Notes under the pieces: model-generated
Seen by the model: the letters and a program-made list of their open reading frames with translations, nothing else
Database searches by the model: none
What the model was told of the DNA's origin: nothing
Part shown: piece after piece, positions 23,401-32,966 of the stretch
Layout: every line of letters starts with the position of its first letter
How positions within the stretch are numbered: the stretch's first letter is position 1
Origin: a plasmid
Strand: one strand, 5' to 3'
Sequence record: NZ_CP018188.1
Length of the DNA: 64,000 nt
Translations under genes and position numbers: made by a program

Positions 23401-23511
23401 ATGCTTAAATTTTCTACAAAGAAAACCAAAAAGGCAGGCTGTGTGAGTGTAGGTGCACTAGTTTCAGTTTCAATTGGTCACTACATTAAAGAAGTTAAGA
23501 GTACGGTATAG
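23401..23511 (+). CDS. Candidate small peptide (36 aa), possibly a RiPP precursor or pheromone
   Basis: Strong RBS aaaggaggaagctatcATG. MLKFSTKKTKKAGCVSVGALVSVSIGHYIKEVKSTV. A hairpin lies downstream and an rSAM locus follows. Confidence 0.4.
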   Translation: MLKFSTKKTKKAGCVSVGALVSVSIGHYIKEVKSTV

Positions 23512-23645
23512 CTTACTTTTTGAGTATCGGAGAAGTACAGAGAAATGTTTGTAGTGATGGAAATTGTTAAAAATCATCATTGTTGAAGTATTATGCTTAA
23601 TTATTTCTTGTTACAAAAATTTCTATGTACAATCAATCGTTTAGG

Positions 23646-23682
23646 TAGGCAATTGTAAAATTAGCCTACTTTTTATTTAAAG
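23646..23682 (+). terminator. Hairpin (gtaggc-13 nt-gcctac plus T run); possible attenuator after the small peptide gene
   Basis: Seen directly in the sequence. Confidence 0.45.
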
Positions 23683-23687
23683 TTGCT

Positions 23688-24254
23688 ATGAAAGAAAATA
23701 GAAAACTCCAGATATTAGTACAGTGTTTATTTCAAGTAATGATTTCGAATATTTGCTTGATATTATATGTCTTATTTTGTTCAGTTTTTTTAAAAACTCA
23801 GAGCATACTGTTATCATTAAGTGCCCCTACAATGGTCGCTTTGGTAGTGCAGCCAATATGTTTAGAAAAAATTTTGTTTAAAAGTAAAGTCAATTATTCC
23901 CAACATATTATTGTTGTTATATCGGCCTTAATAATTATTTTGTTTTGTTCCCTTGTTAACATACCTGAAAAAACTATATTGATTTTACATTTTATTTTGA
24001 TAGGCTTTTCTGAAGAAATATTATATAGAATGATTATCTTAGATAGGATGAAGTCTTCTTATAATATCTTAGAATCGATAGTGATTACTGCGCTTATCTT
24101 TGCCTTTTTAGGTCATATATCGGAACCTATTTTAGATAATCTAATGGTAAGATTTCCTTTGGGAATATTTTTAGCATTTATAAGAATAAAGTTTAATAAT
24201 ATTGGAATTCCAACGATTATTCATACTTTATATAATGTTTTAGTAACTTTTTAG
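23688..24254 (+). CDS. CPBP (CAAX) family intramembrane metalloprotease or bacteriocin-immunity-type protein
   Basis: Multi-TM protein with SEEILYRMII (the EExxxR motif). Confidence 0.65.
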   Translation: MKENRKLQILVQCLFQVMISNICLILYVLFCSVFLKTQSILLSLSAPTMVALVVQPICLEKILFKSKVNYSQHIIVVISALIIILFCSLVNIPEKTILILHFILIGFSEEILYRMIILDRMKSSYNILESIVITALIFAFLGHISEPILDNLMVRFPLGIFLAFIRIKFNNIGIPTIIHTLYNVLVTF

Positions 24255-24266
24255 AAGAGGTTTTTT

Positions 24267-29352: not shown

Positions 29353-30193
29353 TTTAAGTAAATCATTTGGTTTACAAGAGGTGTTAACTAATATCAATTT
29401 TGACATTCAATCAGGAGATATAGTTGGCTTGATTGGAAAAAATGGCTGTGGAAAGACTACTCTAATGAAGATGATATTGGGTTTTACATCACAAACCAAG
29501 GGTTATATCCAATTTGAAGGTGATCCGAATTATCATACTAAAAGGAAGACATTAAATAAAATCGGTTTCCTCCTAGATTGTAGGCTGTTTGAAGATTTCT
29601 CTGCATATGATAATTTGAAATTATTCTCTATGTACTCTTCAACAGTTAATGAAGAAAATTTAGATGACCGAATTGAGAGGTTGTTAAAGTTTGTTGGTTT
29701 AGATAATAGTAAAAAACTAGTAAAATCTTATTCTTTTGGTATGAAACAGAGATTGGGTTTGGCACTGGCATTACTAGATGATCCTGAATTTTTGATTTTA
29801 GACGAACCATTTGTCGGTTTGGATCCCACCGGAGTTAGAGTTCTTCTAGATTATATTGTAAAGTTACGTCGGGAAAAGGGTGTTACGATACTAATCTCAT
29901 CACATCAGTTACATGAAATTGAAGAAATTTGTGACTATTTCTTATTTATAAATGAAAAGAGTATTGAAAAACATTCTAAACTAGGGGAAAATCAAATAGT
30001 TATTACTTTGGGACATCTAGTACCAGAGTTGGAACAGGACTTAAGAGATATGATTGATATGAAAGAAGGTCAGATAACTTTACCAAAGGATATGTCGTTG
30101 CTGAATTCAACATTAAAGCTTATTTACAAGTATAATAGTGAATTAAAAGATATCACAATAAATGATTCTACAGAAGAGTTATTTAGGGGGTGA
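29327..30193 (+). CDS. ABC transporter ATP-binding protein (immunity-type)
   Basis: Walker A GKNGCGKTT, signature FGMKQRL, Walker B ILDEP. RBS ggagg 8 nt before the ATG. Confidence 0.8.
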   Translation: MNTILRACNLSKSFGLQEVLTNINFDIQSGDIVGLIGKNGCGKTTLMKMILGFTSQTKGYIQFEGDPNYHTKRKTLNKIGFLLDCRLFEDFSAYDNLKLFSMYSSTVNEENLDDRIERLLKFVGLDNSKKLVKSYSFGMKQRLGLALALLDDPEFLILDEPFVGLDPTGVRVLLDYIVKLRREKGVTILISSHQLHEIEEICDYFLFINEKSIEKHSKLGENQIVITLGHLVPELEQDLRDMIDMKEGQITLPKDMSLLNSTLKLIYKYNSELKDITINDSTEELFRG

Positions 30194-30197
30194 AAAA

Positions 30198-30950
30198 ATG
30201 CAATCGATAATATTAGCAGAACTATATAAATTACTGAAACGGAAAAATTTTATCATATTAGCAGTGTTATCTTTGTGGTCGTTAATTTACGGATTAGGCG
30301 CTTTTTTACATTGGGATTTTGTAAAAATTGGTGCTAAGTTGGATTTAGTTACCTTTATTACAACGATGTGGACGTTTTTATTGATATTAACTATTCCACT
30401 ATTATTAATTTTGTACACTGCTTCCTTTATTTTAGGAGGAGAAATCCAAGGAGGGCAAATTTTACTAGAAGTAAACCGAGTATCTAGTAAGAAAACGTTG
30501 ATTATTTCTAAGTATATAGTTGTCATCTTATCAATCTTATTTTTGTATGTACTGAACTGCTTATCATCACTCATCACTTATATTTGTTTTTTATCTCGAA
30601 GTGAGTTTGGTTACGTACATTTTTGGGAACTGCATTCTACAAATATGCAATCAATAATAATTAGTTTGGTAAATTTAAGTTTCATTATTTTATTGGCTAG
30701 TGTAGCCTTTTACTTATCGTTATATGTTTCGGCAATAGTAGCCGCATTTGCAAGTTTAGGTGTTTATTTTTTATGTCAACTTTTGTCATATATTGCTATT
30801 ATTTCTAAATTTGTTCCGGGATACTTTTTTATTGTATCGAATTATCGTTTTTCATTGGAATTATCTATAGTTCACTTGTTAGGTTATTTCTTGATTTGTC
30901 TGTTATTATTGATTGCTACTACGAAAGGATTTGAAAAGAAAGCATTATGA
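30198..30950 (+). CDS. ABC-2-type permease
   Basis: Six-TM hydrophobic protein directly after the ATPase gene. Confidence 0.65.
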   Translation: MQSIILAELYKLLKRKNFIILAVLSLWSLIYGLGAFLHWDFVKIGAKLDLVTFITTMWTFLLILTIPLLLILYTASFILGGEIQGGQILLEVNRVSSKKTLIISKYIVVILSILFLYVLNCLSSLITYICFLSRSEFGYVHFWELHSTNMQSIIISLVNLSFIILLASVAFYLSLYVSAIVAAFASLGVYFLCQLLSYIAIISKFVPGYFFIVSNYRFSLELSIVHLLGYFLICLLLLIATTKGFEKKAL

Positions 30951-30987
30951 GTGATATAATATTTCAAAAAGGAATTCATGAAAGCAC

Positions 30988-31716
30988 ATGTATAAAATAG
31001 CAATTTGTGATGATGATAGTCTACAAGTTAGTCATTTAGAAACTCAAATTTCAAAGTATTTTGATGAGATTAATGTTCACTATGAGATTGATGGCTATTA
31101 TAAAGGAAATCGTCTAGTAAAGGCGATGAGCACTCAGGCAGATAACTATCAATTGATATTTTTAGATATTGAAATGGAGGAAATTAATGGTATTGAAACT
31201 GCAAAATTATTGAGAAATTTAGATAAGAGTTTCGTCTTAATCTATGTTACAAGTTATGAGCAATATGCTTTAGAGAGTTTTGAAGTATCTCCGTTTCGTT
31301 ATCTTATAAAACCTGTATCTACTGAAAAATTGAGAGACGTTCTTAGTGATGTTCTCGTAGAATTAACTGCTAAACAGAAATTCTTATTTTATCAAGTAGG
31401 TATGGAACATTTTCAAGTAATCTTAGATAATATTGTGTGCTTATATTCTGAATTTGGTCGAAAAATCCACCTTGAGTTGGTTAATGATAATAGCGTGTTG
31501 TTTTATGGAAAAATATCAACACTTGAAGAAGAGTTACCTCAAACACATTTTATTAGAGTCAATAGCGGGGCAATAATTAATCTAGACTATGTTGTATCTT
31601 TTAATAGAAATGAAGTAACGATGATAAATGGTGACTGTATTACTATTAGTAGAAGTCGAAAGAAAACAGTAGTAGCAACTTACAATCATTTTATTGAGAG
31701 GAGTTTTGGATTATGA
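30988..31716 (+). CDS. LytTR-family response regulator
   Basis: Receiver domain (IAICDDD...FLDIEM) plus a C-terminal LytTR DNA-binding domain. Confidence 0.75.
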
Positions 31717-32966
31717 TTGATTTGTTTAAAACAATTGGAATCCTCTCTCTTTTTTTATTTCAAAGCTTTGTTATTTGGATTTATTTACTACATTTTTTTG
31801 TTGTCAGAATACCTAAAATGAGATTTTATTGTTTTATTTTTTGTATTTATTTTGTTGGTAGAACATCAATAACAGTGGATCAGACCACGTTTATTGATTT
31901 AAAAATTTTTTCTTTATTTTGTACTTTCTTGATTCTTTTCTTCTTTTTATCTGGGGAGGTAATGAAAAAAGTATTTCATTTCTTATTTCTGACTTTTTGG
32001 TTCTTGATTCAAGAGGATATTGCAGGTTTATTATTTAATCATACGCCAGAAACTAAAGTATTTGTTATTCTTTTCGTTCAATTTTTATTGATGTTGTTGA
32101 CTCTTTTCTTCATATTGGGATTGAAGCGTTTCAAAGTAGATAATTTAATAGGTCTGAATAAAATGGAATATGGCATTCTTTCAGTTACTCCATTTTTTTC
32201 TATTATTCTGCTGTTACATAAGGTAGCGCTGCCTCTAGTAAAGGTTCTTGCATTTGATAGTTATTTGTGGTTAATAAATATTGTTATAATCGTGCTTTAC
32301 AATTACTTAAGTGAAAAAAACTACAATATTATCAAAAACAAAGTAGCTTTTGATGAAAATAGTATGACTAGTGAAATTATAAAGCAAGAAAAGGAGCTAG
32401 CCGTTCTTAGACATGATTTGAAAAATATTGTTTCTTCAATAGATTTTTATGCTGATAATAGTGATTATGAAAATATTAAAGTAATAACTCGAAAGATACT
32501 GGGACAGGAAGTATTTAATCGTAAGATTACAGGTTGTATACCTATTGATGCTGTGTTAAATCAAAAAATATCTAAGATGAAAAAAGATGGTATTCTACAT
32601 AATTTAGATTTACAGGTTCCATATAATTTAGACTTAAGTACTATTGCGATTGATTCATGTGCCATTCTTGGGAATCTTCTTGATAATGCTATAGAAGAAA
32701 TTGAACGTAATAGCTTAGAAGAACCGATTGAAATAGCTCTGCGTTTTAAAAATAATAAATTAGTTTTCAAAGTTGCTAATCCCATCAGAACTTCTAATGT
32801 AGATGTTAATTATGATGGAATGAAGTCTATTAAATCTCCTAACAGACAAGGTATAGGAATAAAAAGTAGTTATGATAGAGTCATGAAATTAAAGGGGCAC
32901 CTAAACATTACTGTTCAGTCAAATCAATTTATTGTACTAGTTGTGATTCCGTTAAGGATGAAATGA
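31713..32966 (+). CDS. Multi-TM sensor histidine kinase (AgrC/BlpH-like, GHKL ATPase)
   Basis: About six N-terminal TM helices, HDLKN H-box and [12 protein letters not shown]-box. Overlaps the RR stop (ATGA). Confidence 0.7.

Follow-up and report, generated by a model that had tools for sequence, protein, structure and literature searches.

The plasmid stretch of 64,000 nucleotides that was analysed here (sequence record NZ_CP018188.1; in the following called the window) carries between positions 23,401 and 32,966 a locus in which a gene for a 36-aa peptide is followed by the gene of a radical S-adenosylmethionine (rSAM) enzyme with a SPASM domain, and we think it reasonably likely that this locus is an inactivated copy of an approximately 9-kb, horizontally mobile cluster for an rSAM-modified, ribosomally made and post-translationally modified peptide (RiPP), belonging to a widespread uncharacterised family and operating by the mechanism proposed below. 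The product probably acts as a bacteriocin and, in addition, as an inducer of its own synthesis. The open reading frames (ORFs) listed on the + strand from 21.5 to 35 kb include nine genes of the locus, the maturase gene among them being in two pieces. The gene order, all on the + strand, had been described by an earlier reading made from the letters alone (the sequence-only reading), and the ORF listing together with Pfam and NCBIfam searches places the genes as follows, with ABC standing for ATP-binding cassette, TM for transmembrane and RRE for RiPP recognition element:

23401-23511, + strand: precursor peptide gene, 36 aa (ORF, ribosome-binding site and conserved homologues)
23688-24254, + strand: CPBP (Rce1-like) intramembrane glutamic protease, 188 aa (PF02517, E = 8e-14)
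24267-24695, + strand: membrane protein, 142 aa (ORF; conserved partner of the CPBP protein)
24682-25099, + strand: 5' part of the maturase gene, with a predicted RRE-like domain and the CX3CX2C motif (ORF, Pfam)
26832-27643, + strand: 3' part of the maturase gene, with the remainder of the barrel and a 7-Cys SPASM domain (in-frame join)
27649-29352, + strand: ABC exporter with fused TM and ATPase parts, 567 aa (PF00664, PF00005)
29327-30193, + strand: immunity-type (LanF-like) ABC ATPase, 288 aa (NCBIfam)
30162-30950, + strand: permease partner, 262 aa (TM prediction, at least five TM segments)
30988-31716, + strand: LytTR-family response regulator, 242 aa (PF00072, PF04397)
31713-32966, + strand: HPK10-like kinase of the peptide-sensor type, 417 aa (six N-terminal TM segments, HDLKN H-box, HATPase_c_5)

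The same gene set was found again in at least 12 distantly related loci, so that the arrangement is not due to chance. Its members, namely the regulator, the kinase, the CPBP protein, a membrane protein of about 150 aa, the rSAM enzyme, the ABC exporter, the ATPase and the permease, recur together in Bacilli and Clostridia, and most full-length loci, including those of Blautia, Gottfriedia, Lysinibacillus, and Enterococcus, encode the exporter together with the ATPase/permease and LytTR/HATPase_c_5 pairs. With the inserted insertion sequence (IS) left out, 22456-33415 is 99.4–99.6% identical to a chromosomal contig of Streptococcus raffinosi. The G+C content amounts to 26–32% in the locus, 35–39% in the IS, and 33–43% in much of the remaining window. 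The sequence-only reading had likened the architecture to that of streptococcal rSAM-modified peptides; a real rSAM-RiPP cluster is present, but it is not specifically streptococcal, and it does not resemble the streptococcal rSAM peptides that are controlled by shp/rgg. The same reading had left the product class open and had considered the product possibly undescribed. This assessment stands, as no curated maturase model passed its cut-off, none of the curated precursor models of NCBIfam was matched by the 36-aa peptide, and no paper containing the core motifs (GCVSVGA and related strings) was found in the searchable literature, the coverage of which is incomplete. Moreover, no description of the cluster was found in the literature on S. 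salivarius megaplasmids with radical SAM genes, on Blautia sactipeptides, or on S. salivarius sactipeptides. The family may already be contained in published rSAM-RiPP networks as a numbered, uncharacterised group, and since many rSAM-RiPP families still await characterisation, the locus is no surprise in kind.

We propose that the LytTR regulator would bind repeats of TTACTACA and thereby switch on the precursor promoter, while a hairpin behind the precursor gene would halt most transcripts, so that the mRNA of the precursor would exceed that of the enzymes. The N-terminal RRE-like domain of the maturase would bind the leader MLKFSTKKTKKAG, and the enzyme would abstract a hydrogen from a core residue and bond the respective carbon to the sulfur of Cys14, resulting in a thioether ring; the thioether partner would most likely lie near the conserved Gly26, just before a His-Tyr pair, and relatives with two Cys would carry two rings. 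The CPBP protein and its 142-aa partner would cut the leader, possibly at Gly13/Cys14, the 567-aa ABC transporter would export the product, and the ATPase/permease pair would shield the producer. Finally, the six-TM kinase would sense the secreted peptide, which would close an autoinduction loop.

The first component of this scheme is the precursor. The sequence-only reading had named the 36-aa ORF as the candidate precursor, and it can be regarded as a genuine precursor gene because its homologues adjoin rSAM orthologues and its changes are mostly synonymous. It is preceded by a strong Shine-Dalgarno sequence (AAAGGAGGA, 23385-23393) and would encode the leader MLKFSTKKTKKAG and the core CVSVGALVSVSIGHYIKEVKSTV, the junction between the two being guessed. 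The short leader follows a motif that is conserved in the family, MLxF..KK..KAG. Looking for homologues beside maturase orthologues in related genomes, as the sequence-only reading had suggested, revealed a conserved small peptide gene in Streptococcus, Enterococcus, Blautia, Kandleria, Clostridium, Gottfriedia, Lysinibacillus, and Staphylococcus; the precursor is conserved next to the maturase in at least nine genera, and each full-length locus of the closer group contains a 36-aa homologue (tblastn and a small hidden Markov model), with varying gene order. The peptide reads MLKFSTKKTKKAGCVSVGALVSVSIGHYIKEVKSTV in Streptococcus, MLFFSTKKSKKAGCVSVGALFCASVGHYIKEIKSDV in E. canintestini, MLFFSKKVNKAGCASVGVVVCGSIGYNGKKWSA in Blautia, MLFFSKKVNKAGCASVGAIICGSVGYNGKKWSV in Gottfriedia, and MLFNSKSRFGSGCISVGTIFICISYGKNGL in Lysinibacillus. 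Seven residues are invariant in 13 aligned peptides (M1, L2, F4, K7, C14, G18, and G26); distant variants such as GGCINILIVQAGYDGKKWTI and ...GCVSVSVVVGATVGHY... are devoid of G18 and keep the Cys as well as a Gly-aromatic pair 10–12 positions further on. The single Cys noted by the sequence-only reading is correct for the streptococcal form, yet most relatives have two, one in each of two CxSxG repeats, which is the ancestral arrangement. Ser or Gln takes the place of the second Cys in the streptococcal peptide, so that the one-Cys form is the derived state.

The variation within these genes points to selection on the encoded peptide. Compared with the Enterococcus gene, 13 codon differences are synonymous and 8 are non-synonymous, Ser16 being kept despite a change of its codon from AGT to TCT, and natural variants within the streptococci are mainly conservative swaps (V/I/M, I/V, and K/R). 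The exact peptide and close variants occur on more than 1,600 contigs, all labelled uncharacterised, the named entries coming from S. salivarius and S. anginosus. An exhaustive search with the 36-aa peptide returned five representatives only, probably because small genes are rarely called. Some loci contain the precursor in several copies: a metagenome-assembled genome (MAG) of Clostridium encodes three tandem copies with identical peptides (L012, 12934-13331), a MAG of Anaerolineales two divergent copies (L025, 9828-10107), and a Mediterraneibacter locus three single-Cys copies (L018, 869-1418).

The second component is the maturase. Once the inserted element and one copy of the duplication flanking it are removed, the two pieces join in frame to a protein of 409 aa, which matches Radical_SAM, Fer4_12, and SPASM (PF04055, PF13353, and PF13186), all above cut-off. 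The truncated 5' ORF is 100% identical to BSR19_11255 of a 188,293-bp plasmid of Streptococcus salivarius, and the window therefore represents this megaplasmid or an identical one. Intact orthologues with 94–99% identity were found in S. raffinosi, S. ovuberis, S. orisratti, and many read-archive assemblies. More distant orthologues with 31–61% identity are present in Enterococcus, uncultured Bacilli, Eubacteriales, Blautia, Kandleria, Clostridium, Gottfriedia, Lysinibacillus, Staphylococcus coagulans, and Coriobacteriia; for one of them, the Blautia maturase P0020, the index of the collection lists 464 blocks. Ten Cys are invariant in 28 homologues, three of them in the CX3CX2C motif (C89, C93, and C96) and seven in the SPASM domain (C301, C319, C361, C364, C370, C374, and C392), and no eighth conserved SPASM Cys was found among these 28 sequences. 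An AlphaFold2 model (pLDDT 89) predicts three strands and two helices for residues 7–63, followed by the barrel and the SPASM domain. When compared with the Protein Data Bank (PDB) by Foldseek, the top match of the model is CteB (E = 1e-20, about 445 aligned columns, identity about 21–22%), followed by the anaerobic sulfatase maturase (anSME), SuiB, PqqE, TigE, and SkfB. The profile of the family searched against PDB sequences gave 108 bits for CteB over residues 7–388, 85 bits for anSME over the core only, and 78 bits for SkfB. Residues 7–88 of the profile align to the N-terminal peptide-binding domain of CteB, a domain that anSME does not have.

None of the curated maturase models of NCBIfam reaches its cut-off. 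The best one is the StsB sactisynthase with 137 bits against a cut-off of 625, aligned over nearly the full length, and it is followed by AhbD, MftC, NirJ, WgkB, and PapB, while the anSME model scores 90 bits. The AlbA model yields 74.5 bits against a cut-off of 850, so that neither AlbA nor StsB places the enzyme among the sactisynthases by curated model. For the ranthipeptide and SCIFF enzymes the scores are similarly short of the cut-offs (PapB, 109 against 340 bits; SCIFF maturase, 83.7 against 425 bits), and the precursor has only one or two Cys. The profile search with the rebuilt maturase had been named by the sequence-only reading as a check, and it does not group the enzyme with SPASM enzymes that act outside of RiPP biosynthesis, as StsB is matched better than anSME (137 against 90 bits) and CteB better than anSME. 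These data also bear on the idea that this is not a RiPP locus at all, in which case the 36-aa ORF would be unrelated or spurious and the rSAM enzyme would act on a non-peptide or, as anSME, on a protein substrate. It could draw on anSME being the second-best match by structure and by profile and on the absence of any curated RiPP model that passed. However, peptide and maturase occur together over phyla-level distances, in varying gene orders and sometimes with tandem precursor copies, the codon changes indicate selection on the protein sequence, the N-terminal domain aligned with the peptide-binding domain of CteB is lacking in anSME, and no sulfatase gene is present in the locus. We regard this explanation as very improbable.

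Which chemistry the maturase would perform is a separate question. In CteB, an auxiliary cluster has an open site that is filled by a Cys of the substrate (PMC8172795). Such an open site is compatible with the full SPASM domain of our enzyme, which has seven Cys and no eighth ligand, and on this analogy we hold with moderate confidence that the invariant Cys14 is crosslinked as a thioether. The maturase might instead perform another radical chemistry, either the epimerisation of Val, Ile, or Ser as described for YydG/EpeE or the formation of a C-C or C-O crosslink at the His/Tyr after Gly26, and the Cys would then serve as cleavage or cyclisation site or in a disulfide. The gene order resembles that of the yydFGHIJ operon, which runs from the peptide over the rSAM enzyme and a membrane protease to an ABC ATPase and permease, Val, Ile, and Ser abound in the core, the streptococcal peptides have one Cys only, and the non-thioether enzymes MftC, AhbD, and WgkB score only slightly under StsB. 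By fold, however, EpeE ranks far under CteB (rank 46, E = 4.5e-9 against 1e-20, TM score 0.47), which speaks against membership in the epipeptides (YydF/YydG), and no epimerase model is among the 25 NCBIfam matches listed. Furthermore, Cys14 is the most strictly conserved residue of the core, distant relatives included, whereas distant relatives have Lys or Val in place of the aromatic residue that follows Gly26, and the open-site arrangement of the SPASM Cys fits the thioether enzyme CteB. We therefore judge a chemistry other than thioether formation to be rather unlikely.

As leader peptidase we propose the CPBP protein. It contains the motifs EEILYR and HTLYN and at least four predicted TM segments. 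No Pfam or NCBIfam match was obtained for the 142-aa membrane protein encoded behind it, the 90%-identity cluster of which comprises 74 members without a functional name. The CPBP gene is part of the rSAM cluster in most full-length loci, where it usually lies directly upstream of the rSAM gene, and in every locus that was read through it is followed by a gene for a membrane protein of 140–178 aa. In most loci this pair stands directly before the rSAM gene, which overlaps the membrane protein gene, and the membrane proteins share a C-terminal segment of the type N-x-[ST]...N[IL]S. In loci of the Blautia, Kandleria, and Gottfriedia type, an extra conserved protein of 121–125 aa is encoded between the rSAM and the precursor genes (L009, 9227-9598; L010, 2003-2368; L083, 7706-8083; L084, 8226-8597); it is absent from the streptococcal and enterococcal loci and no family could be assigned to it.

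The CPBP protein and its membrane partner could alternatively be immunity proteins, as has been proposed for the Abi/CPBP genes of class II bacteriocin loci, with the leader being cut by an unlinked protease or kept. CPBP/Abi genes often flank bacteriocin clusters and are seen as possible self-immunity genes (PMC6120550). Against this stands that both genes form a conserved pair inside the maturase cluster, mostly directly upstream of the overlapping rSAM gene, that the exporter has no peptidase domain, which calls for a dedicated protease, and that in the SKF cluster, too, an rSAM enzyme goes together with a putative protease, SkfC (PMC8172795). In addition, both genes were lost together with the biosynthetic genes in a remnant of the cluster, described in the following, that retains the ABC-2 pair. 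An immunity function of the two proteins appears doubtful to us, though of the competing explanations it is the one that we would take most seriously.

The absence of a peptidase domain from the exporter, which the sequence-only reading had pointed out, was borne out, since the protein has no C39 domain and its TM domain starts at about residue 14. All curated exporter models are below cut-off for the 567-aa exporter (GggC exporter, 128 bits against 750). An immunity-type ATPase/permease pair, likewise part of that reading, is present as well; the best NCBIfam match of the ATPase is the lantibiotic-protection ATPase with 191 bits, though this is below the cut-off of 309. The permease probably starts at the ATG at 30198, as its homologues align from residue 9–13 on, and one permease orthologue gave a weak match to ABC2_membrane_4. 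Hints on the division of labour within the cluster come from a 206,913-bp plasmid of Streptococcus sp. FDAARGOS_192 (L082, NZ_CP020429.2), which matches only 29322-33014 (86.6%) and the promoter region. At 8940-12780 of L082, the precursor promoter, the TTACTACA box, and the ribosome-binding site are joined directly to the start codon of the ATPase gene, followed by the genes of the permease, regulator, and kinase, whereas everything from the peptide gene through the exporter gene is absent. This remnant provides good indirect evidence that the ATPase/permease pair is a protective module, that it is switched on by the same sensor and promoter as the precursor, that the CPBP and 142-aa proteins belong with biosynthesis rather than with immunity, and that the product does so much harm that non-producers retain a defence against it.

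The LytTR response regulator and histidine kinase of the sequence-only reading are indeed encoded at the end of the locus, the former with receiver and LytTR domains and the latter as a polytopic HATPase_c_5 kinase with an HDxxN H-box. The following candidate regulatory elements can be assigned:

23290-23319, + strand: putative LytTR box, imperfect 9-12-9 direct repeat (sequence and cross-genus comparison)
23348-23353, + strand: candidate -10 hexamer TATACT with a weak -35 (reading of the sequence)
23643-23678, + strand: terminator-like hairpin with T-run between the precursor and CPBP genes (predicted fold)
30931-30960, + strand: promoter-like site before the regulator genes, TTGAAA-18 nt-TG-TATAAT, 11/12 matches (consensus match only)
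32989-33010, + strand: terminator-like hairpin at the end of the locus (terminator scan)

The putative box consists of the halves TTACTACAC (23290-23298) and AATAATACA (23311-23319), separated by a spacer of 12 nt. Direct repeats of 9 bp that are spaced by 12 bp are the layout of the ComE, PlnC/D, and AgrA boxes. The box was recognised by visual inspection and by comparing genera, and an automatic repeat finder returned nothing in the precursor promoter. The same TTACTACA 8-mer, for which a chance expectation of about three occurrences per 64 kb on both strands was calculated, also stands 90–132 nt ahead of the start codon of the precursor gene in E. canintestini, E. termitis, and Lysinibacillus, and altogether four genera have the box at an equivalent position. 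In these relatives the boxes read TTACTACAT-12-TTTACAACG in E. canintestini, TTACTACAA-12-AATAAATCA in E. termitis and, as a perfect repeat, TTACTACAA-12-TTACTACAT in Lysinibacillus. The TATACT hexamer lies 28 nt past the box and is conserved in four streptococcal loci. Downstream of the peptide gene, where the sequence-only reading had placed an attenuator hairpin, a hairpin is indeed predicted: its stem of 12 bp spans 23643-23671, the 186-nt spacer folds with z = -2.6, and four streptococcal species share the structure, the stem showing paired changes in S. ovuberis and S. orisratti. A consensus terminator scan did not flag it. The hairpin is in line with the partial terminators located behind the precursor genes of other bacteriocin operons. 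Rfam revealed no RNA family inside the locus.

This regulatory outfit raises the question whether the peptide is primarily a quorum-sensing pheromone, comparable to a modified autoinducing peptide (AIP), and not an antimicrobial, the ABC-2 pair then serving secretion or turnover of the signal. An HPK10-type kinase together with a LytTR regulator is the classic peptide-pheromone pair, a separate inducer peptide gene was not seen in the ORF listing of the locus, the regulator box before the precursor gene is conserved, and the cluster is very common in commensals, as illustrated by the Blautia maturase P0020. However, every locus has a second transporter of the lantibiotic-protection type besides the exporter, and the L082 plasmid keeps exactly this transporter and the sensor under the precursor promoter, a pattern expected of orphan immunity to the toxin of neighbours. 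Toxin and pheromone roles are, moreover, not mutually exclusive. A function primarily as pheromone is in our view unlikely, slightly more so than a different radical chemistry of the maturase, and we favour a bacteriocin that induces its own production.

Several points weigh against the interpretation of the locus as a cluster for a thioether-bridged, autoinducing RiPP. The boundary between leader and core is a guess. The Pfam PqqD model matches none of the 28 members of the maturase family, and the assignment of the RRE-like domain thus rests on the AlphaFold2 model and the alignment to CteB. Thioether formation is proposed by analogy, as the scores of the enzyme fall far short of all curated cut-offs; there is only one Cys in the streptococcal core, the sequence does not reveal which residue is the acceptor, and Gly18 is not universal. 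In other bacteriocin loci, CPBP proteins have been proposed as immunity proteins and not as proteases (Kjos 2010, as cited in PMC6120550). The repeat box is a putative regulator site. Finally, the totals of the promoter and terminator scans for the region were not above shuffled expectation, which leaves the site at 30931-30960 as a candidate promoter only.

The copy of the cluster in the window is inactivated by an IS that lies in the maturase gene and consists of the following parts:

25100-26823, - strand: ISSag10 (IS1595 family), 1,724 bp (inverted repeats, target duplication, identity)
25181-25675, - strand: lincosamide nucleotidyltransferase gene lnu(C) (PF10706)
25699-26742, - strand: ISSag10 transposase gene (IS1595 model, 196 bits against a cut-off of 75)

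The element has terminal inverted repeats of 25 nt, lies between the two copies of an 8-bp target duplication (ATTAAGAA, 25092-25099 and 26824-26831), and shares 99.8–99.9% identity with annotated copies of ISSag10/lnu(C) that are carried by plasmids of Glaesserella, Cetobacterium, Ligilactobacillus, and Enterococcus; near-identical copies are also present on Campylobacter plasmids. As ISSag10 splits the maturase gene, this copy cannot make a functional maturase or the mature product and represents a pseudogene cluster, in which the immunity and sensor genes are intact. Thus, on a megaplasmid of the commensal S. salivarius, an IS conferring lincosamide resistance knocked out a bacteriocin maturase while immunity and sensing were kept, and this copy and the immunity-only sister plasmid look like stages in the decay of a producer to a resistant non-producer.

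Among characterised systems, CteB is nearest for the enzyme, the SKF cluster for the organisation, and the blp/pln/agr type for the regulation. CteB, which is SCIFF-type, belongs to thermocellin and performs ranthipeptide chemistry, has the domain order that is predicted for our enzyme, with an RRE-like domain, an rSAM barrel, and a full SPASM domain. In contrast to the SCIFF peptides with six Cys, the precursor described here has one or two Cys in CxSxG motifs, and in comparison with the CteB system the cluster additionally contains the CPBP protein, the membrane protein of about 150 aa, two ABC systems, and the two-component system. With regard to SKF, SkfA presumably has a similar ...KAAG|C... 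junction of leader and core, and SkfC is, as we assume, a CAAX/CPBP-type protein. The SKF cluster of Bacillus subtilis (skfABCEFGH) comprises a small precursor, an rSAM enzyme with an RRE, SkfC as putative membrane protease, and an ABC ATPase/permease that serves export or resistance (PMC8172795), and in our locus, too, the precursor and rSAM genes are accompanied by those of a membrane protease and of an ABC ATPase/permease pair. However, SkfB carries only one auxiliary cluster, in a twitch domain (PMC8172795), while the enzyme described here has a full SPASM domain and is thus not of the SkfB type; homologues of SkfG or SkfH (thioredoxin) are not encoded in the locus, the core sequences are unrelated, and regulation is by a LytTR two-component system.

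StsB, the best curated model for our maturase, makes sactionines from Cys to Gly (PMC10288494), and the substrates of StsB and BlaB likewise have conserved Cys and Gly (PMC10288494). In StsA and BlaA, however, the Cys are clustered N-terminally and the Gly lie C-terminally, forming nested hairpins, whereas the present family shows an alternating C-G-C-G pattern or one Cys. Furthermore, StsB uses a separate RRE protein, StsC, whereas the enzyme described here has a predicted N-terminal RRE-like domain of its own. With the streptococcal rSAM RiPPs controlled by shp/rgg (streptide, tryglysin, streptosactin, and suisactin), the locus shares the genus, small clusters that contain an exporter, and islands of low G+C content. 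The enzyme reaches 109 bits with the WgkB model against a cut-off of 650. No Rgg/SHP genes are present in the island, which is flanked by genes for DUF6994, a protein without assigned family, NUDIX, and ASCH proteins and has LytTR/HPK10 genes instead, and in a 2026 review of streptococcal rSAM RiPPs none is described under two-component control. The blp, pln, com, and agr loci share the six-TM HATPase_c_5 kinase, the LytTR regulator, and 9-bp direct repeats 12 bp apart before the precursor gene. They differ in that their peptides are unmodified double-glycine peptides or thiolactone AIPs that depend on C39-type exporters or AgrB, while the sole peptide gene seen here encodes an rSAM substrate. 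A pneumococcal low-GC cluster called 'streptosactin' (PMC6120550), consisting of ssaA, ssaCD, three unknowns, and a peptidase, with matches in S. intermedius and Parvimonas, was also considered; it contains no ABC or two-component genes and was set apart by its architecture, on the basis of the gene list only.

The family is common in bacteria associated with the human mouth and gut, yet uncharacterised. As the precursor is clear and an intact orthologue of the maturase with 98–99% identity exists, structure and activity of the product are directly testable. Such work could settle how a CteB-like enzyme acts on a substrate with one Cys, whether a CPBP protease serves as RiPP leader peptidase, a role long presumed for SkfC, and whether a modified peptide signals via a kinase of the AgrC/ComD type. 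A bolder version, which we offer tentatively and consider doubtful in its entirety, would have the family as a new RiPP class, abundant in oral streptococci and in gut Blautia. In this class a CteB-like enzyme would install a crosslink of undescribed topology on the alternating CxSxG motifs, in the one-Cys streptococcal form a single macrocycle from Cys to the Gly26 region. The CPBP protein and its partner of about 150 aa would be a new leader peptidase or cyclase, the mature peptide would be both toxin and ligand of the HPK10 kinase, and neighbours would exploit the system by orphan immunity cassettes fused to its promoter.

Beyond the cluster, several observations concern its borders and surroundings. 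On both sides of the low-GC island stand copies of a 33–47-nt repeat (TGGTAGTGTAAAATAAGTTGTGTAAACACAAAA...), located at 21184-21230, 33165-33197 (inverted), and 33464-33510, the two right-hand copies forming an inverted pair 264 nt apart that resembles a miniature inverted-repeat transposable element (MITE). Beside them, at 33106-33168, Rfam reports RF02592 'S. pyogenes antisense RNA 392987' with 68.7 bits. At the left edge of the island, a 58-aa ORF on the - strand (22301-22477) ends in ...RLGHSSINTTINVYSHLFPTQQKE and resembles, by eye, a tyrosine recombinase fragment from the C-terminus. Upstream of the precursor gene lie ORFs for a DUF6994 protein (21285-22244) and for a 175-aa protein without assigned family (22388-22915), the latter accompanying the cassette in S. 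raffinosi with 99% identity. An IS3-type transposase of two ORFs (HTH_Tnp_1, then rve) at 35278-36917 separates the rSAM locus from a class II lanthipeptide cluster at 37371-47835. In this second cluster, a kinase and a regulator of the OmpR type are encoded on the - strand, and there are three lanA genes (39708-39857, 39886-40035, and 40282-40440), the genes of LanM (40460-43240) and a C39-ABC exporter (43267-45339), and then three ORFs that are probably LanFEG. The first two lanA peptides (…GNGVFKTISHECHLNTWAFLATCCS) look similar to SA-FF22 / salivaricin G32.

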